NCBI GenBank assembly: GCA_964534795.1
Contig: CAZHQK010000022.1
Span: forward strand, 384-64,383
Length of the DNA stretch: 64,000 nucleotides
Direction of reading: 5' to 3'
From: an uncultured Acidobacteriota bacterium
Lineage (GTDB): Bacteria; Acidobacteriota; UBA6911
Under the pieces are notes generated by a model that saw only the letters and a program-made list of their open reading frames with translations, was not told the origin of the DNA and ran no database searches. Position 1 is the first letter of the stretch; every line of letters starts with the position of its first letter. The translations under genes and the position numbers were made by a program. Below are positions 7,240 to 53,118 of the stretch, one piece after another.

Positions 7240-7336
7240 AGTTTCGGTGACAGGCTACTCAACCCCGAAACTATGCCTTCGGAGAGGGGGACGGCGCTCG
7301 GGGAGTTTGGGGGTTGAGTAGCCTGTCACCGAAACT
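7240..7336. repeat. Family A inverted-repeat doublet (miniature derivative of RAYT element ends)
   Basis: Arms 7240-7272 and 7304-7336 (1 mismatch) with core TTTCGGTGACAGGCTACTCAACCCCGAAA, identical to the repeats flanking the RAYT at 45805-46595. Confidence 0.9.
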
Positions 7337-20553: not shown

Positions 20554-20582
20554 TTTCGGTGACAGGCTACTCAACCCCGAAA
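20554..20582 (+). repeat. Solo family A repeat
   Basis: Exact TTTCGGTGACAGGCTACTCAACCCCGAAA. Confidence 0.9.
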
Positions 20583-37271: not shown

Positions 37272-37272
37272 G

Positions 37273-37358: not shown

Positions 37359-40088
37359 TCATTCGCGCGCTATGCGGTCGGCGTCGACGCACTCGACGGG
37401 CCCGAGCGCGAGCGCGGTCAGGCCGGCTTCGATGCTTCGGCGGTCGCCGACGGCGACCACCACCATTTCCCCGGGCCTCAGGTGCTTTTCGGCCGCGCGC
37501 CGGACATCCTGCGCGCCGACCGCGTCAATCTGCGCGGGCAGGTCGCGGTAGTACTCGCGCGGCAGGTTGTGGACGAAGAGCCGGCCCACGCTCGCGGCTG
37601 CGTCGGCGGTGGTCTCGAACATTCCGGGGAGCGAGCGCGCCAGGGAATCCTTGGCCCTGGAGAGTTCATCCGCGGTCGGCTCGCCGTTTCTCATGCCCTC
37701 GATCTCGCGGAAGATTTCGGCGACCGCGGCCGCCGTGGCGTCCGTGCGCACGCCGGTGGCGACCATGAAGGGTCCCGGGCCGCGGCGGAAGGCGAACGAC
37801 GACGAGGCGCCGTAGGTGAAGCCGTGGCGCTCGCGCAGGTTCATGTTGATGCGGCTGGTGAACAGTCCGCCGAGCGTGCTGTTCATCACCTCGATCGGGA
37901 CATAGTCCGGGTCGGAGCGCGCCGCCCCGGCGTGCCCGATGCGCAGCGCCGTTTGCGGCGCGCCCGGCTTGTCGACGATCAGCACACGGCGCGCCGCTGC
38001 GACCTTCGGAGGGGCCGCGGGCGCCGCATGCCCTTCGGCCCGCCACTCGCGCAGGAACCTCTCCGCCATGCGGCGCAGCTCTTCGGCGGTGACGTCGCCC
38101 GCGACCACCAGGGCGGCGTTCGCCGGGACATAACCGCTCCGCCAGAAGCTCCGGATCTCCTCCGGCGTCATCGCGCGCAGCGAGCGCTCCGTCCCCAACT
38201 CGGTGTAACCATAAGGATGGGCGTCGCCGTAGACCGCCCTGACGAAGGCCCGGTTGGCCAGCGCGGCGGGATTTTCCCTCTGCCTCAGGATCTCGGTGAG
38301 GCGGTCCTGGCGGATGCGTTCGATTTCCCGCTCGGGGAAAGCCGGGTGCAGGAGCAGGTCGGCGGCCAGTTCGAGCACCGCCTCCATGTTCCTGCGGAGG
38401 GAGCGGAAGGCCACGAAGGAGTAATCCATCGAGGAGCCGGTCGAGAGCTGCGCGCCCAGCCTGTCGGCTTCTTCTGCGATCTGCATGGCGTTCCTGGTCT
38501 CGGTGCCCTCGTCGAGCATTTCCGCCGCGAAGGAAGCCAGCCCCGGCCGATGCGGCGGATTGCGGTCGCCGCCGCCCAGGACGATCAGGTTGGCCGAGAC
38601 GACGGGGAGCGTGTGCTGCTCGAGGAGGAAAACGGTCAGGCCGTTGTCGAGCCGGAAAACCTCGGGCGCCGGCAGCCGCATGGGGGCTGCAGGCGCTGCG
38701 GCAGGGGGGCGGCTGCGCCACTCCTGCCCCGGCAATTCGCCCGCGACCGGCACTTCCGTTTCCGGCTCGGGCGGGCTCTTGGGGGGATCGTCGATGATCT
38801 TGCTTCCCGGAACCCCATGGACCACCACGCGCGCGCCCGGCTCCAGGTAGCGCCGGGCGGCGGCGCGCAGCGACTCGGGCGAAGCTTTGCGGTAGCGCTC
38901 GAGGTCGCGCGCCAAGTAGCCGGGATCGCCCAGGAAATGCTGGTACAGGTTCAGCCGGTCCGCGACCCCGCCGAACCCGCCCAGGCTTTCCAGCCCGTGG
39001 ATGATGGCGGCTTCGTAGGTGTTGCGCGCGGCTTCCGTTTCCTTCTCCGAGGGCCCGGCCTCGCGCAAGGCCTCGAGTTCTTCGTCGATCGCCCTTTCCA
39101 GCGTCTCCGGATCCACGCCCGGCTTGGCGGTCGCTTCGATGGCGAACACCGACCCGAGCGCGAGCGAGGTCTGGGAAGCGCTCACGTCCTGCGCCAGGCG
39201 CTTTTCGTAGACCAGGCTGCGGTAGAGCCGGCTGGACTTGCCCCTTCCGAGGATCTTGCCGATCAGGTCGCATTCCGCGTCGCCCGGCTGGAAGATGGGC
39301 GGCGTGATCCACGCCATGTAGACCCGCGGCAGCTCGACCTGGTCGGTGACGACGGCGCGCCGCTCGGCCGTGATCGCCGGGGTCTCGACGCGCATCCTCT
39401 GGATCGGGGGACCGGGAGGAATGGGGCCGAAGTACTTCTCGACCAGCTTCATGGTGTGCTCGGGATCGATGTCGCCGACGATGGCGAGGCTGGCGTTGTT
39501 GGGCGCGTAGTACAGCCTGAAGAACTCGCGCACGTCCGGCAGCCGGGCGGCCTCGATGTCGGCGTGCGATCCGATCACGGAAGCGTAATAGGGGTGATTC
39601 TCGGGGAACAGCAGGTGGAAGACCGCTTCCTGGACGAGGCCGTAGGGGACATTCTCGACGCTCTGGCGGCGCTCGTTGCGCACCACGTCGCGCTGGTTTT
39701 CGAGCTTGCGCGCGTCCAGCCGCTCCAGCAGGAAGCCCATGCGGTCGCTCTCGAGCCAGAGGGCGAGCTCCAGCCGGTCGGCAGGCAGGGTCTCGAAGTA
39801 GTTGGTGCGGTCGAAGTCGGTGGTGCCGTTGATTTCGCTGGCACCTGCGGCCTCGAGCAGCATGAAGTGCGCTTCGGGCTCCACGTGGGCGGATCCCTCG
39901 AACATCATGTGCTCGAAGAGGTGCGCGAAACCGGTGCGGCCGGGCCGCTCGTCGGCCGGGCCGACGTGGTACCAGACATTGACCGCCACCAGCGGCAGCC
40001 GGTGATCCTCGCTCAGAATGACGGTCAGGCCGTTGGCCAGACGGTGGCGCTCGAACTTGATTTCGGGTGTCTTGTATTCTGCAGTCAC
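37359..40088 (-). CDS. M16 family zinc peptidase (PqqL-like, two-lobed)
   Basis: GFAHLFEHMMFEGS (HXXEH), second lobe with LRE..G.TYG. Confidence 0.93.
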   Translation of the reverse strand: MTAEYKTPEIKFERHRLANGLTVILSEDHRLPLVAVNVWYHVGPADERPGRTGFAHLFEHMMFEGSAHVEPEAHFMLLEAAGASEINGTTDFDRTNYFETLPADRLELALWLESDRMGFLLERLDARKLENQRDVVRNERRQSVENVPYGLVQEAVFHLLFPENHPYYASVIGSHADIEAARLPDVREFFRLYYAPNNASLAIVGDIDPEHTMKLVEKYFGPIPPGPPIQRMRVETPAITAERRAVVTDQVELPRVYMAWITPPIFQPGDAECDLIGKILGRGKSSRLYRSLVYEKRLAQDVSASQTSLALGSVFAIEATAKPGVDPETLERAIDEELEALREAGPSEKETEAARNTYEAAIIHGLESLGGFGGVADRLNLYQHFLGDPGYLARDLERYRKASPESLRAAARRYLEPGARVVVHGVPGSKIIDDPPKSPPEPETEVPVAGELPGQEWRSRPPAAAPAAPMRLPAPEVFRLDNGLTVFLLEQHTLPVVSANLIVLGGGDRNPPHRPGLASFAAEMLDEGTETRNAMQIAEEADRLGAQLSTGSSMDYSFVAFRSLRRNMEAVLELAADLLLHPAFPEREIERIRQDRLTEILRQRENPAALANRAFVRAVYGDAHPYGYTELGTERSLRAMTPEEIRSFWRSGYVPANAALVVAGDVTAEELRRMAERFLREWRAEGHAAPAAPPKVAAARRVLIVDKPGAPQTALRIGHAGAARSDPDYVPIEVMNSTLGGLFTSRINMNLRERHGFTYGASSSFAFRRGPGPFMVATGVRTDATAAAVAEIFREIEGMRNGEPTADELSRAKDSLARSLPGMFETTADAAASVGRLFVHNLPREYYRDLPAQIDAVGAQDVRRAAEKHLRPGEMVVVAVGDRRSIEAGLTALALGPVECVDADRIARE

Positions 40089-40175
40089 GTTCTCTCCTGA
40101 CGATCGTGTGGGATTTGCGCTCGGCGCGAGCCGGAAGCAGAAAGATTACCACATCGGCTGCCGCAGGCTCAGCCT

Positions 40176-40204
40176 TTGACTCTCCTGCCTCTCTTGCATA
40201 ACAT
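40176..40204 (+). promoter_or_regulatory. sigma70-type promoter
   Basis: TTGACT-17 nt-TAACAT. Confidence 0.55.
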
Positions 40205-40299
40205 GGCGGGTCTGAGGAACACGCCCGGAGCCGGGGGACGGGGCCGGCGGCACGGACTTGCCCCGGTGCGCCCGGGTCGAAACAGAGGGGAGCCGACCC

Positions 40300-41673
40300 A
40301 TGAAGACCGCTTATGCTTGCATCGCGTCACTGGCGCTTGCGGCCTGGGCTTTCGCCCGCCAGGCGGAAAGCCCGGCCAGGCCGCCGCAGGGGCTGGATCC
40401 GGCGATACAGAAGATCGTCGCGGAAATCTCCGAGGAACGCATCGTCGCGATTCTGAAGAAGCTGGAGAGCTTCGGGACGCGCCACACGCTTTCCGATCCC
40501 GGCCAGCCGAACCGCGGCGTGGGGGCGGCCAGGCAGTGGATTTTCGACGAGTTCCGCAGTTACAGCCCGCGCCTGGAAGTGAGCTTCGATACCTACCAGG
40601 TGCCCAGGGGCGGGCGCGTGTTCAAGGACGTCGAGGTGCGCAACGTCATGGCCGTGCTTCCCGGCAAGTCCGACAGGGAACGCTGGGTCATGATCGGCGG
40701 GCATTACGATTCGCTCAATCTGCGGGTGCCCGCGGAGCTGCGTTCCGATCCCGCCAAGGCCGCCGAGATCGACGCGCCCGGTGTGACGGACAACGCCAGC
40801 GGCACCGCCTGCGTCATGGAATGCGCGCGCGTCATGAGCCGCTACGAGTTCGACGCCACCCTGGTTTTCGTGGCCTTCGTGGGCGAGGAGCAGGGGCTGA
40901 TCGGTGCGCGCCATCTCGCGCGCCGGCTGCGCGAGCGCAATCAGACCGTGGAGGCGCTGCTCAACAACGACATCATCGGCAGCGTGGTCGCCGGCAATGG
41001 CGCCATGGAAAACCGGCGCGTCCTGGTTTTCTCCGAGGACCCCGCCGACTCGCCCTCGCGCCAGCTCGCCCGCTTCATCCGCCTGATCGGCGCGCGCTAC
41101 CATCCGGAGTTCGCGGCCGACCTCATTTTCCGCAGCGACCGCTTCGGCCGCGGCGGCGACCACACGCCCTTCAACGAGGAAGGTTACGCCGCCGTGCGCT
41201 TCACCACGCCCAGCGAGAACTATGCGAACCAGCACAGCCCGACGGACAACTTCGCCAACACCTCGCCCGGATACATCGTGCAGGTGACCCGCCTGAACGC
41301 CGCGGCCGCCGCGGCCATGGCCCTGGCGCCCCGGCCGCCGATCACCGTCGCGGAAGGCGAGGCCGAGGCGGGCGCGGCGGCAGCCGGCCGGACGCGCGGC
41401 GCCCGGGCGGGCCTCGGGCGCGGGGAGGGTTACGATGCGGTGCTGCGCTGGGATTATGCGGGGCCGGAAGACGACCTGGCGGGTTTCATCGTCGTCGTGC
41501 GGGCGACGACGGCGCCCGACTGGGAGCGGGAGATCTGGGTGGGCAACGTGCGCGAGTTCACCATGAAAAACACCCCGATCGATCAGCTCGTCTTCGGCGT
41601 CAAGGCAGTTGACCGCGACGGCCACGAGAGCCCGGTGTCGGCATACTACACTCCGTTGCGGCGTGCGCGCTGA
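40300..41673 (+). CDS. Secreted M28 family peptidase
   Basis: Signal peptide; GGHYDS, DNASG, GEEQGL, NNDIIG, GGDH. Confidence 0.9.
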   Translation: MKTAYACIASLALAAWAFARQAESPARPPQGLDPAIQKIVAEISEERIVAILKKLESFGTRHTLSDPGQPNRGVGAARQWIFDEFRSYSPRLEVSFDTYQVPRGGRVFKDVEVRNVMAVLPGKSDRERWVMIGGHYDSLNLRVPAELRSDPAKAAEIDAPGVTDNASGTACVMECARVMSRYEFDATLVFVAFVGEEQGLIGARHLARRLRERNQTVEALLNNDIIGSVVAGNGAMENRRVLVFSEDPADSPSRQLARFIRLIGARYHPEFAADLIFRSDRFGRGGDHTPFNEEGYAAVRFTTPSENYANQHSPTDNFANTSPGYIVQVTRLNAAAAAAMALAPRPPITVAEGEAEAGAAAAGRTRGARAGLGRGEGYDAVLRWDYAGPEDDLAGFIVVVRATTAPDWEREIWVGNVREFTMKNTPIDQLVFGVKAVDRDGHESPVSAYYTPLRRAR

Positions 41674-41735
41674 ACTGTGGGCTTGGAACAATAAGCTTAC
41701 GGTCCGGCACGGCGTGCCGGAACTACCTGCGATCC

Positions 41736-41838
41736 GGCCCCGGCAGGGGCCCTGAGCGGGTAGCCGGGGGTGAGCCGCAGGCGAACCCCCGGAAAGGAGC
41801 GTATCGATAAGCCGAGCCCCGGAGGGCCGGCAGACCTT
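41736..41838 (-). repeat. Family C element (inverted orientation)
   Basis: Reverse complement of 31086-31186 with few mismatches. Confidence 0.9.
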
Positions 41839-42085
41839 CGTACCCGTGCCGGCCCTAGCAGCGCCTCAGGGCGGTGAGGATCCCGCAAGGGGTCCGACAG
41901 GAATGCCCGGAGCGCAAGCTCCGGCCCGGGCTCGAAAAGCGCACGTTTGCGGTTGTCTCGCGGGGCCCGATACACTATGCTAGGGTCCGGCCGGCGTGCG
42001 GGCTGTGCCTTGCTTGATGTTTTGCAGTGGTGCCGGCCAGCCGTATAAGGTAATCCGTTCGACACGACTACTTAGGGAGTTCGTT

Positions 42086-43396
42086 ATGGCGAAACTGAAA
42101 GAGATACTGCGCGAGAAGATCGAAGCCTGGCGGCCGCGGACGGCGCGCCTGGTGAAGGAATACGGCAACGTCAAGGTGGGCGAGGTGACCATCGGCCAGG
42201 TCATCGGCGGCGCCCGGGACGTGCGCTGCCTGGTCACCGACATATCGTACCTGGACCCCAACGAGGGGATCCGCTTCCGCGGCATGACGATTCCGGAAGT
42301 CCTGGAAAAGCTGCCCAAGGTCCCCGGGAGCGAGATGCCCTTCGTGGAAGGACACCTGTGGCTTCTGCTGACGGGCGACATTCCCACGCTGGAAGAGGCC
42401 AAGAGCCTGACCGAAGAGTTCAACCGGCGCCAGCAGATCCCGCAATACGTCATCGACGTCCTGCGGGCCATGCCGCGCGACACCCACCCGATGACGATGC
42501 TGTCGGCCGCGATCGTGGCGATGCAGCGGGAGTCCATCTTCGTGCAGCGGTACAACCAGGGGATGCACCGCAACGACTACTGGGATCCCACATATGAAGA
42601 TTCGATGAACCTGCTCGCCAAGCTGCCCGGTATCGCGGCTTACATTTACCGCATGAAGTACCGCAGCGACACGATCATTCCCCCCGACCCTGACCTGGAC
42701 TTCGGAGGCAACTTCGCCCACATGATGGGCATCCCGAAGCCATACGACGATGTCTCCAGGCTCTACTTCATCCTGCACAGCGACCATGAAAGCGGCAACG
42801 TGAGCGCCCACGCCGGGCATCTGATCGCGAGCGCGCTTTCGGACGTCTACTACGCCATTTCCGGGATGGTCGACGGCCTGGCGGGGCCGCTGCACGGCCT
42901 GGCCAACCAGGAAGTGCTGCGCTGGATCCAGGGCGTGATGGATAAGATGGGCGGCCGGGTCCCGACCGACGAGGAGATGCGCCAGTTCGTCTGGGATACC
43001 CTCAAGGCGGGGCAGGTGATCCCCGGTTACGGGCATGCCGTGCTGCGCAAGACCGACCCGCGCTACATGGCGCAGCGCGAGTTCTGCCTGAAGCACATGC
43101 CGGACGATCCGCTCTTCAAGTACGTGGACATTCTCTTCCGCGTGGTGCCGCCCGTGCTCCTGGAGCAGGGCAAGGCGAAGGATCCCTGGCCCAACGTCGA
43201 CGCGCAGTCGGGCGTCATTCAGTGGTACTACGGCGTCAAGGAGTACGACTTCTATACGGTGCTCTTCGCCGTCGGCCGCGCGCTCGGCGTGACCTCGAAC
43301 ATCATCTGGGACCGCGGGCTGGGATATCCGATCGAGCGGCCCAAGTCCGTGACCACGGAAATGCTGGAAAAACTCGCGGCCGAGTCGAAGAAGTAG
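42086..43396 (+). CDS. gltA: Citrate (Si)-synthase, eukaryotic-like type
   Basis: HSDHESGNVSAH, GLAGPLHGLANQE, PGYGHAVLRKTDPR, WPNVDA, IERPKS. Confidence 0.93.
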   Translation: MAKLKEILREKIEAWRPRTARLVKEYGNVKVGEVTIGQVIGGARDVRCLVTDISYLDPNEGIRFRGMTIPEVLEKLPKVPGSEMPFVEGHLWLLLTGDIPTLEEAKSLTEEFNRRQQIPQYVIDVLRAMPRDTHPMTMLSAAIVAMQRESIFVQRYNQGMHRNDYWDPTYEDSMNLLAKLPGIAAYIYRMKYRSDTIIPPDPDLDFGGNFAHMMGIPKPYDDVSRLYFILHSDHESGNVSAHAGHLIASALSDVYYAISGMVDGLAGPLHGLANQEVLRWIQGVMDKMGGRVPTDEEMRQFVWDTLKAGQVIPGYGHAVLRKTDPRYMAQREFCLKHMPDDPLFKYVDILFRVVPPVLLEQGKAKDPWPNVDAQSGVIQWYYGVKEYDFYTVLFAVGRALGVTSNIIWDRGLGYPIERPKSVTTEMLEKLAAESKK

Positions 43397-43483
43397 CCGG
43401 TCGGCGCAAGCGTGAGGCAAGGGATGCCCGGGCATCCCTTGCCCTCACACCGCGCGCCCCGCAGCGGTGCGCGGCCGGACGCC

Positions 43484-44467
43484 ATGTTCGAGGATTTCGC
43501 CTCGGTACTGTTTCCCGTTTCCGGTGTCCGGGTTTCCATGTTCGTGCCCCCGCTGGTCGCTTTTGCGATCTCGGCCGTCACTTCCACGGCCGGGGTCTCG
43601 GGGGCGTTTCTCATTCTGCCCTTCCAGGTCAGCTGGCTGCGCTATACCGCCCCCTCGGTGAGCGCGACCAACTTTGTATACAACCTGGTGGCGATTCCGG
43701 GCGGCGTGTATCGCTATATCCGCGAAGGCCGCATGGCCTGGCCGCTGACCTGGGTTGTGACCGCAGGGACGCTGCCGGGGGTGTTTTTCGGCTACTGGCT
43801 GCGCGTTCGCTACCTGCTCGATCCGCGCAATTTCAAGGCCTTCGTCGGCTGCGTGCTGCTGTATCTCGGGCTGCGCCTCCTGGCCGACGTCGCCGGCCGG
43901 GCCCACAGGCCGGCGACGCAGACGGCGGCGCTCGAGGAGAAATTCCGGCGCCATGCGGAAGAGGCGGCACGCGGGCGGGGGGCGCCCCTGGCGGCCGGTT
44001 TGCCTCCGGCGGCCGTGGTGCGAACGAAATCCGTCACGCTTGAAAGGGTTGTCTACGAATTCTGGGGCCAGGAGTTTTCCTTCAGTACCCCCGCGATGTT
44101 CGCGCTGGCCCTGATCGTCGGGGTGATCGGCGGAGCCTACGGCATCGGCGGCGGCGCCATGATCGCGCCGATCTGCGTGGCTCTCTTCCGGCTGCCGGTC
44201 TATACCGTCGCGGGCGCCGCGCTCATGGGGACCTTTCTCACCTCGGCCGCCGGCGTGATCTTCTACAGCCTCGTCCCGCTGCAGGCCGGCGTTTCCCATG
44301 CGCCCGACTGGCTGCTGGGAATCCTGTTCGGCCTCGGCGGCATCCCGGGGATGTATTGCGGCGCCCGGCTGCAGAAATTCCTCCCGCAGAAGTACCTCAA
44401 GCTCGTGCTCGGCTGCCTGATTACCTTTCTGGCAGTGAATTACCTGCGGCAGTATTTCCAGCACTGA
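43484..44467 (+). CDS. TauE/SafE (TSUP) family transporter
   Basis: GVSGAF.ILP and YGIGGG..IAP repeats; multi-TM. Confidence 0.9.
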   Translation: MFEDFASVLFPVSGVRVSMFVPPLVAFAISAVTSTAGVSGAFLILPFQVSWLRYTAPSVSATNFVYNLVAIPGGVYRYIREGRMAWPLTWVVTAGTLPGVFFGYWLRVRYLLDPRNFKAFVGCVLLYLGLRLLADVAGRAHRPATQTAALEEKFRRHAEEAARGRGAPLAAGLPPAAVVRTKSVTLERVVYEFWGQEFSFSTPAMFALALIVGVIGGAYGIGGGAMIAPICVALFRLPVYTVAGAALMGTFLTSAAGVIFYSLVPLQAGVSHAPDWLLGILFGLGGIPGMYCGARLQKFLPQKYLKLVLGCLITFLAVNYLRQYFQH

Positions 44468-44509
44468 GACTTCTTCCGATCCGCAGCCCGCAGCGGCGCG
44501 ACTTTGCCG

Positions 44510-44538
44510 TTGCATCCTCGCCCGCGACTGCATATCTT
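44510..44538 (+). promoter_or_regulatory. sigma70-type promoter upstream of pfk
   Basis: TTGCAT-17 nt-TATCTT. Confidence 0.5.
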
Positions 44539-44608
44539 GTAGCATTTTTGCAGAGCGGTTATGATGATTCAGCCTGCATCGGGCGGAAATCGTCAACGGA
44601 GTGTCATT

Positions 44609-45805
44609 ATGAACCGATCGAAAAAAGGCATTATCGCGATTCTTACCGGCGGCGGCGACGTGCCCGGCCTCAACCCGGCGATCCGCGCCATCACCATCCG
44701 CGCCCTGCGCGAGGGATACGAAGTCATAGGCATCCGGCGCGGGTGGGCGGGACTGATCGAGATCGTCCCGGACAAGGACGCCGACAACCGCGACCGCTAC
44801 CAGGTCCTCACGGAAGAGATAGTCAACAAAGCCGGCAGGACCGGCGGCACCTTCCTGCACACCTCGCGCACACGGCCGAGCCACGTCGGCCGGAAGGATG
44901 TTCCGGATCATCTGCGGGACGAGTACAAGGACGACATCAACGACCTGACCCCCGACGTGCTGAAGAATCTCGATTTTCTCAAGGTGGACTACCTCATCCC
45001 CATCGGGGGCGACGACACGCTGAGCTACGGCGTGCGCCTGCATCAGGAAGGGGTCAAGGTCATCGCCATTCCCAAGACGATGGACAACGATGTGCCGGGA
45101 ACCGACTACTGCATCGGCTTCAGCACTTGCGTCACGCGCACCATCGAGATGACGCACAAGCTGCGCACCTCGGCGGGGTCGCACGAGCGCTTTCTTGTAA
45201 TCGAGGTGTTCGGGCGCTATGCCGGATTCACCGCGCTGCTGCCGACCATGGCCGGGGCGGCCAACCGCTGCGTCATACCCGAATACAAGTTCAACATCGA
45301 GCGCCTGACCGAGCTGCTGGCCGAAGACCGTTACACCAATCCGAGCAAGTATTCGGTCGTGATCGTCTCCGAAGGCGCGACCTTCGAAGGCAGCGAAATG
45401 GTCTTCGCCAGCCACGAGCAGGACGCGTACGGCCACAAGAAGCTGGGCGGCATCGGCGATCTGGTTTCCGAGCGCCTCAAGGAGCTGTCGCCGAAATTCA
45501 CCGGCGGCAAGCGCATCGACGTCATCAACCAGCGGCTGGGCTACCTGGTGCGCTGCGGCGACCCGGACGCGATCGATTCGATCGTGCCGATGGCGTTCGG
45601 CAACCTGGCTCTGGATCTCATCCTGCAGAACGTCCACGGCAGGCTCGTGATCCTGAAGGACGGCAAGTATCACAACGCGCCCATCGAGGTGGTCACGAGC
45701 TCGAAGAAGGTCGTCAACGTCGAGAAGTATTACAATACCGAGCGCCTGCGCCCCCACTACAAGAGCTTCGAGGCCAAGCCCCTTTTCATCATGGCCAGCG
45801 ATTAA
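44609..45805 (+). CDS. pfkA: 6-phosphofructokinase, likely PPi-dependent signature
   Basis: TGGGDVPGLN, GGT.L.TSR, GGDDT, PKTMDND, E.FGR.AG. Confidence 0.9.
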   Translation: MNRSKKGIIAILTGGGDVPGLNPAIRAITIRALREGYEVIGIRRGWAGLIEIVPDKDADNRDRYQVLTEEIVNKAGRTGGTFLHTSRTRPSHVGRKDVPDHLRDEYKDDINDLTPDVLKNLDFLKVDYLIPIGGDDTLSYGVRLHQEGVKVIAIPKTMDNDVPGTDYCIGFSTCVTRTIEMTHKLRTSAGSHERFLVIEVFGRYAGFTALLPTMAGAANRCVIPEYKFNIERLTELLAEDRYTNPSKYSVVIVSEGATFEGSEMVFASHEQDAYGHKKLGGIGDLVSERLKELSPKFTGGKRIDVINQRLGYLVRCGDPDAIDSIVPMAFGNLALDLILQNVHGRLVILKDGKYHNAPIEVVTSSKKVVNVEKYYNTERLRPHYKSFEAKPLFIMASD

Positions 45806-45838
45806 TTTCGGTGACAGGCTACTCAACCCCGAAACTCC
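45805..45838 (+). repeat. Family A repeat, left of RAYT
   Basis: ATTTCGGTGACAGGCTACTCAACCCCGAAACTCC. Confidence 0.92.
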
Positions 45839-46524
45839 GTCGCGAGCGGGCTGCGATTCCGCGGTGGCGGGCCCCGTTTTTTCGGCCGGAGCAACCTCCC
45901 GGTGAGCTCTTCCAGCTTGTCGATGAAGCTGTTGCTTCCATAAGGGCGGCCGGTTCTGGTTGCCAGACGAAGGGGCTCATGGTCGCAAGGGCTGTCTATG
46001 CCCCCTTGGAGAAAGATCTTCCATCGGGACGGATCGAAACCGCTTTTCCAGCATTCCATGTCGAGCCATCCCGTGTCGTCGATACCGTTCGCGTGGGCAT
46101 AGGCACTGGACCACGGCCAGTCCCATGGGTACCGGACCAGACGGGCGCGCACGGGATTGAGTTCGATGTAACGCAGCGCTTCCCAGAAGTGCTGCTCGTC
46201 GAGGGGGCAGGAGAAAAACCGATTCTGCCATAGGTGACCGGTCAGGTTGCGCTCGATTTGCTGCCACCGCGCGAAGTCGTTGTGCAACCGGCCGACCCCC
46301 TTGGCCAGCGACGTCGGGCGCCCGGGTATCAACAGATAGTGAACGTGGTTGGGCATGAGCACATAGCCAACCACCCGGATCTGATACAGAGCGAAGTACT
46401 TCCTAGCGAGCGCGAGATAGAGGATCCGCTCGTCGTCGGTGAAAAAGACAGTTTGCCGGTGGTTGCCGCGTTGGGTGACATGGTGCGGGCAACCGGGGAT
46501 CACGATACGTGCAAAACGTGTCAT
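45823..46524 (-). CDS. REP-associated tyrosine transposase (RAYT, IS200-like Y1)
   Basis: HHVTQRGN, LMPNHVH (HUH), HLWQNRF, YIELNPVRA, W.WSS. Confidence 0.92.
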   Translation of the reverse strand: MTRFARIVIPGCPHHVTQRGNHRQTVFFTDDERILYLALARKYFALYQIRVVGYVLMPNHVHYLLIPGRPTSLAKGVGRLHNDFARWQQIERNLTGHLWQNRFFSCPLDEQHFWEALRYIELNPVRARLVRYPWDWPWSSAYAHANGIDDTGWLDMECWKSGFDPSRWKIFLQGGIDSPCDHEPLRLATRTGRPYGSNSFIDKLEELTGRLLRPKKRGPPPRNRSPLATEFRG

Positions 46525-46561
46525 CACCGTTATTGTTTGCCGACCCCATCGATTCTTTCAG

Positions 46562-46595
46562 GGAGTTTCGGGGTTGAGTAGCCTGTCACCGAAAT
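46562..46595 (-). repeat. Family A repeat, right of RAYT
   Basis: GGAGTTTCGGGGTTGAGTAGCCTGTCACCGAAAT, exact reverse complement of the left copy. Confidence 0.92.
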
Positions 46596-46597
46596 AT

Positions 46598-47980
46598 ATG
46601 GCGGAGGGGGAGGGGCCGCTGCTGCAATTCCTCCTGGGCGCGCTCCCGGGGTGGAAGCGCGCGACCGTCAAGGAGCGCCTGCGGCGCGGGGCCGTGCGCG
46701 TGAACGGCGTTGCGGTCACGCGCCACGACCATGCGCTCAAGGCCGGGGATGTCGTCGAAGTCCTGCCCGGGCGCATGGCACCCGGCGGCGAGGACCGCCG
46801 CGCGCGCATCCGCCTCCTTTACGATGACCGCGATCTCGTCGCCATCGACAAGCCCGCCGGGTTGCTTTCCGTGGCCACCGAAAGGGAGCACGAACGCACC
46901 GCCATGCGCCTGACGCGCCGCCTGCTGCAGGAGCGCGGAGCGCGCCGCTCGCAGCGCCTGTGGGCGGTGCACCGCCTGGATCGGGAGACTTCGGGGGTAC
47001 TGCTGTTCGCCAAGTCGCGCGCCGTGCAGCAGCAGCTGCGCGCGAACTGGAAAGATGTCGAAAAGACCTACCTGGCGATCGTGCGCGGCGTACCCGCGCG
47101 GGTGTCGGGAAGGATCGCGGCGCGCCTGCGCCAGGGCAGGGACCTGCGGGTGTACGCCGAGCCGGGCGCCAGGGATGCGAAGCCGGCGGCGACGCGCTAT
47201 AGGGTTCTCGCAACGCTGCGCGATTACGCAATGCTGGAGATTGCGCCCGAAACCGGCAGGAAGCACCAAATCCGCGTCCACCTGGCTGCAGCAGGCCATG
47301 CCGTGGCAGGGGATCCGCTATACGGCGCGGGCGACGATCCTGTCGGGCGCCTGGCCCTGCATGCCCACCGTCTGTGCTTCACTCACCCCCGCACCGGCGA
47401 GAGGATCTCGCTCACAAGCCCGCTGCCCGGGGCGATGGCGGAATTCGTGAGCCGCCGCCGGAAGCCGCCGGATGCAGGCGGCGGTAGACTTGTCTACCTC
47501 GGGCTGGGTTCCAACCATGATGCCGTGCGCAAGCTGCGGTCCGCGGTACGGCTCCTGCGCGAAAAGACCGGCCTGCTCGCGCTGTCGCCCGTCTACCGGA
47601 CGGAAGCCTTCGGTGATGCGGGGGGCAGGGATTATCTCAATGCGGTGGCCGTGATCGAAACCGGGCTCGACCTTTCCCGGCTGAAAAGCGGCGTGCTCGA
47701 GCCGATCGAGAAGCTTCTGGGACGCGTGCGCGACGATCCCGCGCGCGTCGCGATCGACCTCGATCCCCTTCTGATCGTATCGCGGGAAACGGGGCGCGAA
47801 GAATGGGTGTGCGACCCCCGGCGTCTCGACCGGCCGTATGTGCTGGTGCCGCTGGCCGACGTGGCCGCCGGCACCCGTCACCCCCTCACGGGCGAGCCGA
47901 TCGGCAGGGTCGCCGCCCGTGTCCGGAAAGAACGCGGCATGCGCCCGGTGCCGGATGTCTTGCCCGAGCCGGGCCGCTAG
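46598..47980 (+). CDS. RluA-family pseudouridine synthase fused to FolK (HPPK)-like domain
   Basis: S4 domain, KPAGL, HRLDRETSG, TGRKHQIRVH, GD..YG, LHA; then YLGLGSN, SPVY.TE, YLNAV, IDLD, VLVPLADV. Confidence 0.85.
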   Translation: MAEGEGPLLQFLLGALPGWKRATVKERLRRGAVRVNGVAVTRHDHALKAGDVVEVLPGRMAPGGEDRRARIRLLYDDRDLVAIDKPAGLLSVATEREHERTAMRLTRRLLQERGARRSQRLWAVHRLDRETSGVLLFAKSRAVQQQLRANWKDVEKTYLAIVRGVPARVSGRIAARLRQGRDLRVYAEPGARDAKPAATRYRVLATLRDYAMLEIAPETGRKHQIRVHLAAAGHAVAGDPLYGAGDDPVGRLALHAHRLCFTHPRTGERISLTSPLPGAMAEFVSRRRKPPDAGGGRLVYLGLGSNHDAVRKLRSAVRLLREKTGLLALSPVYRTEAFGDAGGRDYLNAVAVIETGLDLSRLKSGVLEPIEKLLGRVRDDPARVAIDLDPLLIVSRETGREEWVCDPRRLDRPYVLVPLADVAAGTRHPLTGEPIGRVAARVRKERGMRPVPDVLPEPGR

Positions 47981-48489
47981 GGCGCGAGATAACGCTCCTG
48001 CAGCATCCGGATGTGGTGCCGCTCGTGGCCCGCGATGATGCAGCCGAGCGCCAGCACGCTGAGCTCCACCTGGTTGGCCACACCCTTGCGCGCGAGCATC
48101 TCCGGCGTGAAGCTCGCGAACAGGTCGACGGTCGAGGCGCGCAGGCGCGCCATTTCCCCGGCCAGGCGGGCGATGGAGCGCGCTGCCGCATTGGACTCGG
48201 GCACGTAGAGGTCCTGGTCGTAGCCGGGAAGCGGCGCCGGGTCGTTGCGTGCGAAGCGGAGCGCGCGGCAGCCGAAGATGCGCTCGCCGTCCATGAGATG
48301 GCACAGTACCTCGGCGATGCTCCACTTCCCGTCGGCATAACGAAAGGCGGCCTTTTCCTCCGGGATTGCGGACACGACCGACTGCGCGTGCGCGCCCGAG
48401 GCCTTCAGGGCTTCGAGGACATCGCCTTCCGTTACCAGGCGGACATAGTTTCTGTAAAACGGCGGTACGCTGTCGATATCCACCAGCAT
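47977..48489 (-). CDS. DinB/YfiT family protein
   Basis: YADGKWS..EV..H..D.E, LPGYDQD, AGHERHH; GGGAGG RBS. Confidence 0.9.
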   Translation of the reverse strand: MLVDIDSVPPFYRNYVRLVTEGDVLEALKASGAHAQSVVSAIPEEKAAFRYADGKWSIAEVLCHLMDGERIFGCRALRFARNDPAPLPGYDQDLYVPESNAAARSIARLAGEMARLRASTVDLFASFTPEMLARKGVANQVELSVLALGCIIAGHERHHIRMLQERYLAP

Positions 48490-48672
48490 TGCGGTTGCCT
48501 CCCGGCGGGAGCCCGTCGAATCCTCCCGCCGCACGATTATGCCCTGCCGCATGACGCTTTCCAACCCTCTCGTGTCGCCGGAAGCGCAAAAATCGTTTTA
48601 CATCCCGGCCCGCGCGCATCATGATCGTGGGGGCGACTTCATTGCAGCGTTCGCCGAGGTGCGGCAAAGGCC

Positions 48673-48948
48673 ATGAAGGTCGGATTGATCGGTTGCGGGG
48701 CGATCGGAACCACCGTGGCGCTGGCGATCGCCGAGGGGCGGATCCCCGGCGTCGAGCTGCTGGGCATCGCCGATCCGGCGGCGGCGCGCAACGTCCACGA
48801 AATATTCGTGCGCGGAGCCTTCGGCGAAGCGGCCGTCCGCCTCGCGAACCTGCCGAACCCGGCCAATCCCAGATCCAGCTATCTGGCAGGGCTTTCCGTG
48901 ATCGCGACGCTGCGGGAGCTGGGCGGGACCCTGCACATCGGAACCTGA
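48673..48948 (+). pseudogene. nadX: L-aspartate dehydrogenase with large in-frame internal deletion
   Basis: N-terminal MKVGLIGCGAIG joined at IADP to C-terminal RNVHEI.V.G.FG...N.P.P.NP.SS.LA..S...L.IGT. Confidence 0.8.
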
Positions 48949-48965
48949 GGCCGAGGAGCGGCGCT

Positions 48966-50078
48966 TCAGCGGGCGAGCAGGGCGGCGGCGCAGATTCCCA
49001 GGATGATGCCGACAAAAACGGCGAGCAGGAGAATAGCCTTCCAGTTGCCGAAATTGATCGTGTAGCCGATGCCGAAGCGCCGCTCGACCAGGATCGAGGG
49101 ATCCTCGGGGTCCACGTAAAACATCCCCAGAATCCACTTGCGGTTGTCGGCCAGCCCGTCGGTGAGCGGCGTGTCGGCCCGCGCCCTCTCGATGCGCGCG
49201 CCGCCCTGCCCGTAGCGGAATGCGAGGTAGCCCACCCCGCCCAGGACATAGACGAGCAGCACGATCGCGAGCGCCATGACGCCCGGCGGCAGCCCCGGCC
49301 TGCGCTCCAGGCCCACCTGGATCGAGGTTACGGCCATCAGCGCCAGCATGGTCGTGGCGAGTATGGAGACTCCGCTGAGAAAGTTGGTCATGGCGGCGCG
49401 GAAGCGCATCTGCGCCTCGAGCGAGGCGCCCTGGTCCCGGAGGCGGATGGCGCGTTTCGCCCTGGCGGTGAGCCACGCGAACCCGCTCAGGCCGACGCCC
49501 ATGCTCAGCGTCATCAGCGGGAGCAGCATCACCGTGGAAAGCGACTTCGGCTTCCAGGCGTCCGGCCTCCCGGAAGGCCCGAAGTGCGTCGGGACCCGGG
49601 CCGGCAGGTCCGGGTAGTGCAGCCAGGCATATCCCATCACCCAGAGGCCGAGACAGGCTCCGAAGACAAGCGCCGCCTTCGGCAGAACCGTGCCCGGGGC
49701 CGGCACGACCGTCAGCGGCGCCGCCGCCGGGGGCGTCCCGGCCGGAGCGAGCGCGCGCGCCCGCCGGTAGGCGCGCAGGTAGAGCGCGACGAAGGCGATC
49801 AGCTGCAGCACGACCGGCGCCAGCGCGGCCACAGGGAGGGGAAGGGCCGCGAGGCCGGCCAGGCCCGACGCAAGGCTGAGCACGATCGCCCCGATCATCC
49901 AGGCGTACCAGGAGCGCGTGATCCGCCGGGCGGCGTCGCTCTCGCACGCACCCTCGCCGACATACACGCCGAAAAGCAGCCCCTTGCGCACAATGAGGGG
50001 ATACAGGAGAAACATCCCCCCGGTCACGAGGACCTCGAATACCACCAGGGCGGTAACGGCGGACCTGGCCTCCATCAC
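48966..50078 (-). CDS. DUF1648/DUF5808 (SdpI-like) membrane protein
   Basis: LLFGVYV, YPDLPARVPTHFG..G.PD.W, W..GMFYVDP.DP...VERRFGIGYTINFG. Confidence 0.85.
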   Translation of the reverse strand: MMEARSAVTALVVFEVLVTGGMFLLYPLIVRKGLLFGVYVGEGACESDAARRITRSWYAWMIGAIVLSLASGLAGLAALPLPVAALAPVVLQLIAFVALYLRAYRRARALAPAGTPPAAAPLTVVPAPGTVLPKAALVFGACLGLWVMGYAWLHYPDLPARVPTHFGPSGRPDAWKPKSLSTVMLLPLMTLSMGVGLSGFAWLTARAKRAIRLRDQGASLEAQMRFRAAMTNFLSGVSILATTMLALMAVTSIQVGLERRPGLPPGVMALAIVLLVYVLGGVGYLAFRYGQGGARIERARADTPLTDGLADNRKWILGMFYVDPEDPSILVERRFGIGYTINFGNWKAILLLAVFVGIILGICAAALLAR

Positions 50079-50503
50079 ACCCTCCGGCGGGCGGAGCGTA
50101 CCGGGGCATCGTGAATGGCGTCGAGCTCGCGCCCGATCATGGCCCGCAGTTCCTCCGGGGCCGCCCCGGCCTGGCGCATGCGGGCCAACAGCGCACGCAA
50201 CGCCCCGAGCAGGCGCGACATTTCCTCGGCGTCGGCCTTCGCGGCGGGCGGCACGACCTGGACGCCCTCGCGGTCGCGGATGCGCACGAAGCCCTCATTT
50301 TCCAGGAGCCGGTAGGCGCGCGCCACCGTGTTGGGGTTGCAGCCCAGGTCGGATGCCAGAACGCGCACCGGAGGCAGGGGCGTCCCCGCGGGCAGCTCGC
50401 CCGCCGCGATGCGCATGCGGATCTGCCGGGCGATCTGCTCGTAGACCGGCTCCTCCGCCGTCCGGTCGACCACAACGATTATCGGAACCTTCCCAGCAGT
50501 CAT
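50075..50503 (-). CDS. GntR (YtrA-like) transcriptional regulator
   Basis: PVYEQI, LPPVR.LA..LG.NPNTVARAY..LE.EG. Confidence 0.92.
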   Translation of the reverse strand: MTAGKVPIIVVVDRTAEEPVYEQIARQIRMRIAAGELPAGTPLPPVRVLASDLGCNPNTVARAYRLLENEGFVRIRDREGVQVVPPAAKADAEEMSRLLGALRALLARMRQAGAAPEELRAMIGRELDAIHDAPVRSARRRV

Positions 50504-50544
50504 TGTCTACCAAATAGTATACAGAAATTCAGCGTTCAAGTCCA
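50504..50544 (-). promoter_or_regulatory. Promoter and palindromic GntR operator
   Basis: TGGACT-17 nt-TATACT on minus strand; TGTCTAC-N6-GTATACA palindrome 50504-50523 abutting the ATG. Confidence 0.65.
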
Positions 50545-50556
50545 GAGGCGAGGCGC

Positions 50557-51189
50557 CTATTTCAGTTTCCTGGTGACGCTCAGGCCGGGTCCGGGGGAGG
50601 CGACGAGTTCGGTACGCAGGCGCGCGTCGCCGGTCACGAGCGCGATGAACTCGGCCATCTCCGCGCGCCGTTCCCTGACATGGTAGGCGACGATGAAGCC
50701 TCCGGGCCGGACCTTGGGAAGAATCGCCTTCAGGAGTGCGGCGCACGCCCGCGGCTGCGTGCCCAGGAAGACCAGATCGAACGGGCCGGCGAGCGCGGGC
50801 GCGACGGCGGCGGCTTCACCGGGCCGCAGTTCGACATGCGCGGACAGGCCGGCGCGCTCGAGGTCGGCGCGCACCCCGCGAGCCGCGCTCGCGTCTCGTT
50901 CCAACGCGATCAGCCTCCCGCCGGTCCGGCCGAAAGCCGCCGCGAGCCAGAAGGCGGCGCAGCCGCATGACGGGCCGAGGGCGACTCCGGCCTCGAGGCG
51001 GTGTCGCAGGACGAGTTCGTAGATGTAGCGGCCGTCGTGCGCGGCAATATCCGGCTGCGCCCGGCCGGAGCAGAGTCCGGCGAGAACGGTTGCGCTGCGC
51101 GGGTCGGCAAGGCCGGCGAAAGGATCGGGGGCCTGCCGGGCGCCGATGAGAGCGCCGCACAGGCCGGCGGCCATAAGCGCGCGGCGCAC
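50557..51189 (-). CDS. O-methyltransferase-like (class I SAM) protein
   Basis: Degenerate motif I, LIALE.D, GPFDLVF, .RPGG.IVA. Confidence 0.75.
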   Translation of the reverse strand: MRRALMAAGLCGALIGARQAPDPFAGLADPRSATVLAGLCSGRAQPDIAAHDGRYIYELVLRHRLEAGVALGPSCGCAAFWLAAAFGRTGGRLIALERDASAARGVRADLERAGLSAHVELRPGEAAAVAPALAGPFDLVFLGTQPRACAALLKAILPKVRPGGFIVAYHVRERRAEMAEFIALVTGDARLRTELVASPGPGLSVTRKLK

Positions 51190-51876
51190 CTACCTCGCGC
51201 CTCCCTGGGGCGGCTTGGCTGCTGGCTGACCCTCGGGCGGGTCGGCGGGCGCCGGGCCCACGCGCTCCACGACGACCCTGCGGATCGTCACCGGCTTGTT
51301 GGGGCGGTCGTCCTGGTCCCTGGGAACGCGGGCGATCGCCCTGATCACCTGCAGGTCGCCGCATTGGCCGAAGATCGTGTGCTTGTCGTTCAAGTAAGGC
51401 AGGGGAACTTCGGTAATGAAGAACTGGCTCCCGTTGGTGTTCGGGCCCGAGTTGGCCATGGCCAGCCTGCCGGGCACGTCGAAACGCAGCGCGGGCACGA
51501 ACTCGTCCTGGAAGGGGAAGCCCGGCCCCTCGGGGCCGCCATATCCCGTCCCCAGCGGATCGCCGCCCTGGATCATGAACTGCGGGATCACGCGGTGAAA
51601 AATCAGGCCGTCGTAGAACCTCTTGTCGCGGACTTCCTTCCTCGTCTGCGGATCCACGTACGACAGCCGGCCGGTGGCCAGACCGACGATCCTGCGCACC
51701 GTGACGGGCGTCTCCTTTTCGAACAGCTTGCAGCGGATGCTGCCCAGGTCGGTTTCGAATGTCATGTAGAGCCCCTGCTCCTGGCTGCCGGCCTGGCGGC
51801 CGGAGCTCCTTTCCGGAATGAGCACGAGGGCGGCGATGAGAGCTGATCCGACAACGATCGGACAGGTCGAGCGCAT
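51190..51876 (-). CDS. Cyclophilin-type peptidyl-prolyl isomerase
   Basis: FYDGLIFHRVIP.FMIQGGDP, LAMANSGPNTNGSQFFIT, HTIFG. Confidence 0.95.
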   Translation of the reverse strand: MRSTCPIVVGSALIAALVLIPERSSGRQAGSQEQGLYMTFETDLGSIRCKLFEKETPVTVRRIVGLATGRLSYVDPQTRKEVRDKRFYDGLIFHRVIPQFMIQGGDPLGTGYGGPEGPGFPFQDEFVPALRFDVPGRLAMANSGPNTNGSQFFITEVPLPYLNDKHTIFGQCGDLQVIRAIARVPRDQDDRPNKPVTIRRVVVERVGPAPADPPEGQPAAKPPQGGAR

Positions 51877-51892
51877 CGTATTTCCTCCCGAT

Positions 51893-51967
51893 AATAGGGA
51901 CGCTCACCTTTCGCTCGCGCACCATGCGTTGCGGCGCGGCTTGAAGACATAGATGAGCGCGCCCATT
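51893..51967. repeat. Family B repeat with degenerate second arm
   Basis: AATAGGGACGCTCACC at 51893; GATGAGCGCGCCCATT at 51952-51967. Confidence 0.65.
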
Positions 51968-52046
51968 GTATCAAGCGGGCCGAACGGGGTGCGAGCCAAA
52001 TGCGCCGGCGGGTCCCGCCGGGCGGCCGTGCTATAGTAGCGGCACG

Positions 52047-53057: not shown

Positions 53058-53118
53058 TTTCGCTCCCGCATCGTGCGCTGCGGCTCTTCTTGGAGAAACA
53101 GGTGAGCGTCCCCATTTT
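53041..53118. repeat. Family B inverted-repeat doublet
   Basis: GGGACGCTCAC(53044) ... GGTGAGCGTCCCC(53101). Confidence 0.8.

Follow-up and report, generated by a model that had tools for sequence, protein, structure and literature searches.

The gene and its terminal repeats

The window, meaning the whole 64-kb stretch of DNA that was analyzed, comes from an uncultured acidobacterium and carries a gene for a RAYT-like HUH/Y1 protein between a phosphofructokinase gene and an rluA-folK fusion gene, bracketed by inverted copies of a repeat that we designate TIR-1. The features of the locus are:

44561..45805, forward strand: phosphofructokinase gene (pfk), flanking gene
45805..45838, forward strand: left terminal inverted repeat (TIR-1 unit)
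45823..46527, reverse strand: RAYT-like HUH/Y1 gene, putatively of TIRYT / subclass 2.1 / Group 1 type, sole ORF between the arms
46562..46595, reverse strand: right terminal inverted repeat (TIR-1 unit)
46598..47980, forward strand: flanking gene (ATG 46598-46600) for an RluA-family pseudouridine synthase fused to HPPK (folK)

The flanking arms (45798-45838 and 46562-46602) are 41 nt long and 93% complementary, and the perfect inverted repeat within them (45805-45838 and 46562-46595) covers 34/34 bp. The first-pass annotation had described a HUH/Y1 gene tightly enclosed by exact inverted repeats, with its stop codon inside the repeat, and both statements stand: the arms surround an intact gene whose product is 234 aa from a GTG start at 46527, or 233 aa from an ATG at 46524, and the TGA stop (45823-45825), together with the last four sense codons, lies within the left unit. 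The outer end of this unit (TTTCGGTGACAG...) faces pfk, whose TAA stop (45803-45805) adjoins the repeat, and its inner end (...CCGAAACTCC) faces the enzyme gene. In the right unit, the inner end lies 34 nt 5' of the GTG start, and 2 nt separate the outer end from the ATG of rluA-folK. A promoter scan of 45600-46800 returned no sigma-70-like site, and a terminator scan of the same interval returned a single terminator-like site (45858-45871, forward strand), with no excess over shuffles.

A dispersed family of units and doublets

The 29-nt core of the repeat occurs five times in the window (positions 7242, 7306, 20554, 45806, and 46566), four times exactly and once with 1 mismatch, as the first-pass annotation had counted; 0.00 copies are expected by chance (100 shuffles). 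The copies away from the gene are:

7242..7334: REPIN-like TIR-1 doublet, units 7242-7270 (forward strand) and 7306-7334 (reverse strand, with a G26-to-C variant), convergent, 35-nt spacer
20554..20582, forward strand: solitary TIR-1 unit

A count over the 4.3-Mb genome, which that annotation had proposed, yields 75 exact copies of the core, 96 at ≤1 mismatch, and 107 at ≤5 mismatches, and the copies are spread over ~65 different unique contexts. The unit measures ~35 nt and consists of a W-R dinucleotide, TTTCGGTGACAGGCTACTCAACCCCGAAA, and CTCC, in that order; its outer end reads GGTGACAG and its central block is the 13-nt CAGGCTACTCAA. A 21-nt pattern has 94 matches in this genome and at most 11 in any other species' genome (185,579 species genomes, counted by eye), and a 14-nt pattern has 100 matches here versus 7, 8, 20, 0, and 2 in five relatives. 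The assembly comprises 223 contigs and unitigs break at the repeat, as might be seen were the repeat collapsed or chimeric, but a reading of the family as chance or an assembly artifact is refuted and retains virtually no probability: besides the shuffled expectation and the many unique contexts, contigs of four separate studies (four runs) contain the same units and spacers, and dozens of other assemblies have related units.

Genome-wide, the units fall into 42 pairs, every one of them convergent (42/42), and 23 singles; 40 of the pairs are close doublets, and the spacer is 33-37 nt long in 27/42 pairs. Close doublets can form hairpins of ~33 bp, the predicted single-stranded DNA hairpin of the doublet at 7242..7334 having an energy of -39 kcal/mol (z -9). 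Folding of the single arm, with a stem of 6 bp (TTTCGG/CCGAAA) closing a loop of 17 nt, gives -4.2 kcal/mol (z -1.1), a value reached by 23/200 shuffles. The earlier description of each arm as a hairpin is thus literally right as to the stem, but the structure is weak and thermodynamically marginal. The GTAG REP found in this genome has a folding energy of -13.3 kcal/mol (z -2.5). In a third of the doublets, one arm has a single mismatch at position 26 of the core, a recurrent variant that disrupts the 6-bp stem without a compensating change. When 73 related units from other genomes were folded, the median z was 0.1 and the minimum-energy fold enclosed the central block in 33/73; on this basis we do not accept the single-arm hairpin as a thermodynamically supported feature of the family. 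Short GGGG/CCCC-type stems recur among these 73 units. The GTAG reported inside the loop is indeed there, on the strand complementary to the core; it sits in the TIR-1 central block, not at the foot of the stem, and no GT[AG]G foot is found on a stable stem.

Two pairs of doublets (on contigs C98 and C128) are 95% identical over 95-98 nt, spacer included, with unrelated 400-nt flanks, which shows that the whole doublet was copied. The doublet as the copied unit holds for these two events only, because most of the remaining spacers look unrelated when judged by eye from the spacer list. Such spacers fit poorly with simple doublet copying, unless the doublets are very old. A 12-mer look-up of the spacers gave chance matches everywhere and was uninformative; at 15 nt, 10/35 spacers match elsewhere. 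Six spacers recur with a few changes in contigs of related strains (2-4% diverged), in which the arms still match; the arms are strongly constrained and the spacers drift. In acidobacterial assemblies, many breaks between contigs and many hairpins between genes are explained by the family. One convergent pair, on contig C51, encloses a YaiO-family ORF, and two singles on contig C5 enclose methyltransferase genes; these genes are probably chance neighbors and not cargo.

The enzyme, its homologs, and known systems

The enzyme matches Pfam Y1_Tnp (E 1.2e-10), and its HUH, W, and Y motifs are NHVH, WQ, and YIELNP, the last of these being the class-2 Y---NP signature; NHVH and YIELNP are kept in an alignment of 33 homologs. 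Against NCBIfam NF047646 (REP_Tyr_transpos) it scores 72.5 bits, under the 80-bit cut-off, and a paralog in the same genome scores 68.5 bits. Among solved structures, E. coli TnpA-REP (PDB 4ER8; Messing et al. 2012, PMC3479197) is the closest; it was matched by phmmer at E 0.011 with the HUH and tyrosine residues aligned, and by the enzyme model (pLDDT 92) in Foldseek (E 4.9e-9) and VIA-align (Z 16.9, rmsd 2.3 Å, 157/165 residues). The enzyme has a RAYT-like fold and keeps its catalytic motifs intact. While its fold is the same as that of TnpA-REP, the two proteins are only 18-20% identical, ~45 extra C-terminal residues are present here, and the DNA partner of the enzyme lacks a GTAG foot. 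Five TnpA-REP residues have been linked to GTAG recognition (Quentin et al. 2018, PMC6006769), and E100, H101, and R104 of this set align here to Ser, Cys, and a gap. With 3/5 of these residues not conserved, and with no stable stem that has GT[AG]G at its foot, the description of TIR-1 as a non-canonical REP is borne out. The C-terminal extension is conserved in 33/33 aligned homologs, is helical, and ends in a basic KRGP-type tail; it matched nothing in Pfam even at E 10, and a model of this domain by itself was poor (pLDDT 68, pTM 0.29).

Group 1, or subclass 2.1, is the largest RAYT group. Subclass 2.1 is defined in Table 1 of Quentin et al. (2018, PMC6006769) by NHVH or NH[YF]H, W[EQ], and YIELNP or Y[IV]HLNP motifs and a median length of 238 aa, and its C-terminal domain is described there as having helix-turn-helix likeness (Bac_DnaA_C, HTH_23, HTH_28; PMC6006769). 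The enzyme, with NHVH, WQ, YIELNP, 234 aa, and a conserved C-terminal extension, appears to fit this subclass and hence Group 1 of Bertels, the placement being made by motifs and length. Its low copy number and the presence of low-identity paralogs in the genome are further likenesses (PMC6006769, PMC5581495). In these papers, no REP-like sequences are reported for subclass 2.1 (PMC6006769; Bertels et al. 2017, PMC5581495) and the flanking 16-mers of Group 1 have a mean of only 12 occurrences, whereas the flanking repeat here has ~100 copies and forms REPIN-like doublets. Our literature search turned up no biochemical study of an enzyme from subclass 2.1.

Only three Y1 genes are present in the genome. 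The gene at the pfk-rluA locus is single-copy, its next-best match being a 42% identical paralog flanked by a different 22-nt TIR, which has 68 copies at ≤3 mismatches versus 0 for the control; the third Y1 gene is embedded in GTAG-type repeats. Among homologs in relatives, a flanking inverted repeat of at least 18 nt was found at 14/18 loci, with a fifteenth (in genome G006) located further out, and every homolog repeat found has GGKGAC(A/G)(G/C) at its outer end. The exact sequence GGGGACAG occurs in the repeats of homologs in G007, G024, G011, G033, and G006. The CAGGCTACT block, by comparison, is common to the repeats of the three closest homologs only; the GTAG within it is conserved in this sub-lineage alone, and GTAG as the key to recognition is not supported, GGKGAC(A/G)(G/C) being more widely shared. 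The linkage of gene and repeat is specific and is repeated in the paralog and in relatives. The RAYT-repeat partnership proposed in the first-pass annotation is therefore upheld: a single-copy gene is flanked by a unit dispersed ~100 times, the paralog and relatives have repeats of their own, and the repeat is neither absent elsewhere nor unlinked to RAYT homologs.

This arrangement is that of TIRtrons, in which a RAYT-like gene (TIRYT) is flanked by terminal inverted repeats rather than GTAG REPs (Di Nocera, De Gregorio and Rocco 2013, PMC3733652). Shared features include a repeat that overlaps the 3' end of the gene, a dispersed repeat family consisting largely of dimers, the possibility of several genes with different repeats in one genome, and Acidobacteria as a named host group (PMC3733652). 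The GGGGWSAS motif, present in the majority of TIRYT repeats but not all (PMC3733652), has a counterpart here in GGTGACAG, with one mismatch, and relatives carry the exact GGGGACAG. The differences are that a family with the CAGGCTACTCAA central block is not named in the available text of that paper, and that ~100 copies and 40 close doublets compare with families there called "moderately abundant" (PMC3733652). The TIR-1 system is not a new class, as the TIRtron/TIRYT layout was already known, though such gene-and-repeat partnerships have been little studied. The suggestion that its recognition scheme is unlike the characterized ones accordingly survives in part: TIR-1 is not a canonical REP, but the arrangement had been described (PMC3733652).

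The doublets also invite comparison with REPIN-RAYT systems of Pseudomonas and Enterobacteria (Bertels and Rainey 2011, PMC3116915). As in those systems, inverted doublets give a long hairpin, the arms are conserved around a less conserved spacer whose length is fixed, singlets are fewer than doublets, the enzyme is encoded by a single-copy gene with that repeat on either side, and there is evidence for the doublet as the copied unit (PMC3116915). Unlike them, the enzyme is of apparent Group 1 type rather than Group 2 or 3 with GTAG/GTGG REPs, the TIR-1 unit has neither a 5' GT[AG]G foot nor a stable hairpin of its own, and the spacers look unrelated, beyond being merely less conserved. By analogy, TIR-1 doublets may be regarded as functional analogues of REPINs.

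Mobility of the gene and copying of the repeat

With perfect terminal inverted repeats tight around a gene wedged between two others, the locus has the layout of an insertion sequence, and one might suppose that gene and 34-bp repeats move autonomously and that the doublets are MITE-like deletion derivatives. The doublets do share the outer-to-inner polarity of the gene-flanking arms, and homologs in relatives lie elsewhere, 0/19 of their loci having pfk or rluA. We consider this reading very improbable. The gene is single-copy in the genome, the doublet interiors have nothing in common with the gene-proximal sequence beyond CTCC, and related strains that are 2-4% diverged keep a 781-nt gene unitig ending in both arms beside the pfk and rluA unitigs. 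IS200/IS605 elements (IS608, ISDra2), which often carry tnpB, have the HUH/Y1 fold (Foldseek E ~1e-5) and presumably the same single-strand chemistry, but they are multi-copy. Their transposases have Y---Q where the enzyme has the Y---NP of RAYT class 2 (PMC6006769), and they carry direct-orientation subterminal hairpins, without terminal inverted repeats (PMC6006769), in place of the perfect terminal inverted repeats seen here.

No empty site was found: none of 29 same-family pfk loci (5 true orthologs, 76-82% identity) has rluA-folK or a RAYT within 1.5 kb, and pfk-rluA synteny is not conserved among the relatives examined. In contigs of four metagenome runs covering 37000-56900, none joins pfk directly to rluA, and no excision or insertion polymorphism was seen in these contig-level data, in which rare variants are invisible. 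Joints of 45836 to 46562 in metagenome contigs were rejected as excisions, as they carry 26-34 other letters and represent other doublets. The description of the system as recently active is not shown to hold, since the gene and at least six doublets (by their spacers) persist in related strains and the two detectable doublet copies are already ~5% diverged.

Taken with the gene-repeat linkage and the copied doublets, the locus is probably a TIRtron, consisting of a single-copy TIRYT-type HUH/Y1 single-stranded DNA nuclease-ligase and its cognate repeat family of ~100 copies. To recognize its own unit, the enzyme would rely on two elements, the conserved GGKGACAG motif at the outer end and the central block of 13 nt, possibly with the help of the C-terminal extension; at the boundaries of the unit, its tyrosine would cleave single-stranded DNA and rejoin it. 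Whole doublets would thereby be copied into AT-rich sites, often directly after stop codons, and the enzyme gene itself would stay put. We infer the cleavage, the single-stranded substrate, and the choice of target.

The positions of the units bear on whether the doublets serve the host. The boundary W-R dinucleotide often coincides with a stop codon, 16/98 units directly adjoin the stop codon of a long ORF whose third-position GC is high, and for 28/98 such a codon is no more than 30 nt away. A domesticated system, in which the doublet hairpins serve at transcript ends, in mRNA stability, or in protein binding, and the enzyme merely maintains them or has another cellular role with transposition rare or extinct, would be consistent with this placement, with near-invariant arms (75/107 exact) and drifting spacers, and with the stability of doublets and gene across strains; Group 1 RAYTs have also been seen as co-opted single-copy genes (Bertels and Rainey, 10.1101/2021.07.10.451892). 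We regard domestication as unlikely, though not as exclusive of the TIRtron explanation, with which it is compatible. The gene-proximal arms showed no T-run terminator signature, the two whole-doublet copies show that copying happened, and a five- to fifteen-fold expansion over relatives looks like proliferation.

A bolder extension of the TIRtron explanation, which we hold only tentatively and think has a minority chance of being right, is that in Acidobacteriota a REPIN-type replicator is run by Group 1 / subclass 2.1 RAYTs, whose recognition logic is a different one. RAYT-REPIN systems are a leading example of long-lived, vertically inherited replicators in bacterial genomes. A preprint (10.1101/2021.07.10.451892) states that REPIN association is confined to Groups 2 and 3, and this genome, with a Group 1-type enzyme, ~100 copies of the enzyme's own terminal repeat, and 40 hairpin-forming doublets, provides a clean counter-example. 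If so, the enzyme would read the outer GGKGACAG and the 13 nt of the central block, which are unpaired in a lone unit, using no GTAG guide at a hairpin foot; the reading may occur in the 33-bp doublet hairpin or in duplex DNA, by means of the C-terminal extension with its basic tail. A spacer fixed in length but free in sequence, the position-26 mismatch, and the boundary W-R would then be functional parts and not drift, and doublets might even arise when single units insert in pairs. With two pairs of paralog and repeat, this one cell offers a ready-made specificity experiment.

The enzyme gene and its terminal repeats

In the source genome, G000 (4.33 Mb, 65.7% G+C, 223 contigs), the RAYT-like gene of the window lies between two copies of a repeat unit, TIR-1, in the following arrangement.

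45805-45838: left TIR-1 arm
45823-46527, minus strand: RAYT-like enzyme ORF, 234 aa, the sole ORF between the arms
46562-46595: right TIR-1 arm
46598-47980: RluA-HPPK (folK) fusion gene, one 460-aa frame with an RluA-family pseudouridine synthase and HPPK

A second check confirmed the first-pass annotation of a gene enclosed by perfect 34-bp inverted repeats, the arms being complementary at 34/34 nt, and a repeat finder could extend them to 41 nt at 93%. The stop codon indeed lies inside the repeat: the left arm encodes the TGA and the last four sense codons of the enzyme ORF, which starts 34 nt inward of the right arm. The TAA stop codon of the phosphofructokinase gene pfk (45803-45805) adjoins the left repeat, and the ATG of the RluA-HPPK gene is only 2 nt past the right repeat, leaving no space for a ribosome-binding site outside it. 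The five window copies of the 29-nt TIR-1 core reported earlier with at most one mismatch were recovered as four exact copies and one with a single mismatch, against a chance expectation of 0.00.

The enzyme matches Pfam Y1_Tnp (E 1.2e-10) and scores 72.5 bits against NCBIfam REP_Tyr_transpos, under the 80-bit cut-off. E. coli TnpA-REP (4ER8) is the only solved structure matching by sequence (E 0.011), with the HUH motif and tyrosine aligned, and is also the best structural match (Foldseek E 4.9e-9) of a model built from 33 homologs (pLDDT 92, pTM 0.86); VIA-align gave Z 16.9 and an rmsd of 2.3 Å over 157/165 residues, and the next matches are IS200/IS605 transposases. Motifs and fold are those of a chemistry-competent enzyme. 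The enzyme has 234 aa and the key motifs NHVH, WQ, and YIELNP, a combination that Quentin et al. 2018 (PMC6006769, Table 1) assign to subclass 2.1, there equated with Bertels' Group 1. The same paper ties five E. coli residues to GTAG recognition (W94, Q95, E100, H101, and R104); in our alignment W94 and Q95 are retained, whereas the positions of E100, H101, and R104 are Ser, Cys, and a gap. The motif around these positions, RF-x-SCPLDE, is conserved within the enzyme's family. A C-terminal extension with the pattern TGRPLG...LE...TGR...KRGPKP is kept in 33/33 aligned sequences and has no match in Pfam; a helix-turn-helix likeness is described for this part of subclass 2.1 proteins (Quentin et al. 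2018), and the predicted model of the extension by itself is of poor quality. The family is large, with at least 7,619 proteins at E <=1e-20 among 8,000 scored, annotated at source just as "transposase".

Organization and folding of the TIR-1 family

Across the genome, 75 exact copies of the core are present, rising to 96 at <=1 mismatch and 107 at <=5 mismatches. The conserved unit exceeds 29 nt: in the 98 copies compared, CTCC comes next after the core, position -2 is A in 72 and T in 26, and position -1 is G in 55, A in 42, and T in 1, in a genome of 66% G+C. This W-R dinucleotide at the boundary often belongs to a stop codon. Among 98 units, 16 directly adjoin the stop codon of a long ORF whose third codon positions are rich in GC (for example at window 45803-45805, G000:C18:18900, and C54:13639); ten of these begin right after TAA or TAG while six overlap TGA.

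Neighboring pairs, 42 in number, account for 84/107 units, and 23 units are single. All 42 pairs are convergent, with TTTCGG outside and CTCC inside; 40 are close, REPIN-like doublets and one consists of the arms around the enzyme gene. The core-to-core spacer is 33-37 nt in 27/42 pairs, and despite this fixed length the doublet spacers seem unrelated by eye, two copied pairs excepted. A convergent pair at G000:C51:5616-6772 (L118:417-1573; 1,099 nt between cores), with the polarity of the arms around the enzyme gene, brackets one ORF of 280 aa, which carries a beta-barrel domain of the YaiO type (E 2.3e-15); the arrangement may be due to chance.

Folded as single-stranded DNA, a doublet yields a stem of ~33 bp, at -39.1 kcal/mol (z -9) for one strand and -38.6 kcal/mol (z -10) for the other. 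A unit on its own gives a weak fold, at -4.2 and -4.5 kcal/mol (z ~ -1), and 23/200 and 34/200 shuffles fold equally well. The description of the repeat as non-canonical holds. By contrast, the abundant GTAG-tagged REP of the same genome forms a stable hairpin (-13.3 kcal/mol, z -2.5) with GTAG immediately 5' of its stem. The sole variable core position is 26, where G is replaced by C or T in 19/107 units. This change disrupts the short single-unit stem and has no compensating change; 18/19 variants lie within close doublets, mostly in a single arm (14/40 doublets), so that a lone mismatch recurs in the long doublet hairpin.

Linkage of enzyme and repeat in the genome and its relatives

G000 has three Y1 genes, and that of the window is single-copy. 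A paralog (42% identical; G000:C69:15512-16195) lies between different perfect inverted repeats of 22 nt, with 68 copies at <=3 mismatches, 11 of them exact (control 0). This 22-nt family is more diverged than TIR-1, and four of its copies are in the window.

14761-14782, plus strand: 22-nt paralog repeat
14815-14836, minus strand: 22-nt paralog repeat
37274-37295, plus strand: 22-nt paralog repeat
53096-53117, minus strand: 22-nt paralog repeat

Homologs of the enzyme are present in 34/41 related genomes, G000 included; the best are 62% identical, and none of these genomes is of the same genus. Among 18 homolog loci, 14 proved to be flanked by an inverted repeat of >=18 nt, including one in the unpublished genome G034 whose repeat type recurs in G040. 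At the four loci initially lacking a repeat, two are cut by contig ends and a third (G006) has arms further out. All flanking repeats found share the outer end GGKGAC(A/G)(G/C). The proposed RAYT-repeat partnership is thus upheld: a single-copy gene is flanked by a dispersed repeat, its paralog has a family of its own, and homologs carry related repeats, so that pairing is specific. The emphasis placed on GTAG was mistaken. GTAG is part, on the other strand, of a CAGGCTACT block of TIR-1. The three homologs closest to the enzyme (62, 62, and 52% identity) have this block in their repeats too; GTAG is missing from the repeats of more distant homologs.

When one genome from each of 185,579 species was scanned for a degenerate 21-nt pattern, 62 stretches held 73 matches, almost all from Acidobacteriota MAGs, the exceptions being one record labelled Anaerolineales and one Planctomycetota. 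By eye, the maximum was 11 per assembly, versus 94 in G000; a 14-nt pattern gave 100 matches in G000 versus 7, 8, 20, 0, and 2 in five relatives. The family is old and widespread, yet strongly expanded in G000.

Relation to known systems, proposed mechanism, and history

The arrangement, at first taken as undescribed, matches one reported by Di Nocera et al. 2013 (PMC3733652), who introduced "TIRtron" for a RAYT-like gene with terminal inverted repeats and "TIRYT" for its enzyme. As described there, TIRtrons share a GGGGWSAS motif and have repeats that overlap the gene ends; the repeat families are moderately abundant and organized as dimers, several such genes occur per genome, and acidobacterial members form a sharply defined group. 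Because this arrangement was already described, the window system is a TIRtron whose motif, GGTGACAG, differs from GGGGWSAS by one mismatch, and not a new recognition class. The account of Quentin et al. 2018 places TIRYTs in subclass 2.1 and states that REP-like sequences were not found beside such genes, Bertels et al. 2017 (PMC5581495) give a mean of only 12 occurrences for Group 1 flanking 16-mers, and a preprint (10.1101/2021.07.10.451892) describes REPIN association as confined to Groups 2 and 3. Full-text literature searches for TIRYTs and for acidobacterial RAYTs returned no additional work on this type.

We consider it likely that the enzyme is a RAYT-type single-strand nuclease-ligase that would recognize its own terminal-repeat unit and would, at least formerly, have copied doublets while its own gene stayed single-copy; cleavage, the form of the substrate, and the choice of target are what we infer here. 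Doublets have been duplicated: between the copies at C98:4956 and 12318 identity is 94.7%, and between those at C128:149455 and 156392 it is 94.9%, over 95-98 nt that take in the spacer. No similarity is seen in the flanking 400 nt on each side, so whole doublets were copied, each to a site ~7 kb away. That the locus is an autonomous IS with MITEs seems very improbable.

Recent activity, as first suggested, is not favored by comparison with contigs of three further metagenome runs from three other studies, 2-4% diverged. These contain a 781-nt unitig of the enzyme gene ending in both arms, as well as pfk and rluA unitigs that end in the arms, and in none of them is pfk joined to rluA. Judged by eye, six doublet spacers reappear in these contigs and differ by ~4-12%; the arms are thus nearly constant and under constraint, while the spacers diverge as much as coding sequence or more. 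The locus is older than the strain splits, as are at least those doublets. A mainly host-serving, domesticated system is unlikely, although it would be compatible with the nuclease-ligase reading.

The third Y1 gene (contig C181, L001:310-777, 155 aa) has the motifs DHVH, WQ, and Y---Q--HH, which Quentin et al. 2018 (Table 1) list for subclass 1.2, described without REPs. A 23-nt hairpin repeat stands on either side of it in inverted orientation (L001:232-254 and 786-808; 16-mers 84-113 times genome-wide), and it also lies amid GTAG-tagged REPs with 16-mers found up to 234 times. No RAYT of subclass 2.2, 2.4, or 2.5 type was found in G000, leaving this gene as the sole candidate partner of those abundant repeats. 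A cluster of GTAG-tagged REPs is also present at window ~41736-41836, where many contigs end and two runs show a ~100-fold rise in summed contig depth.
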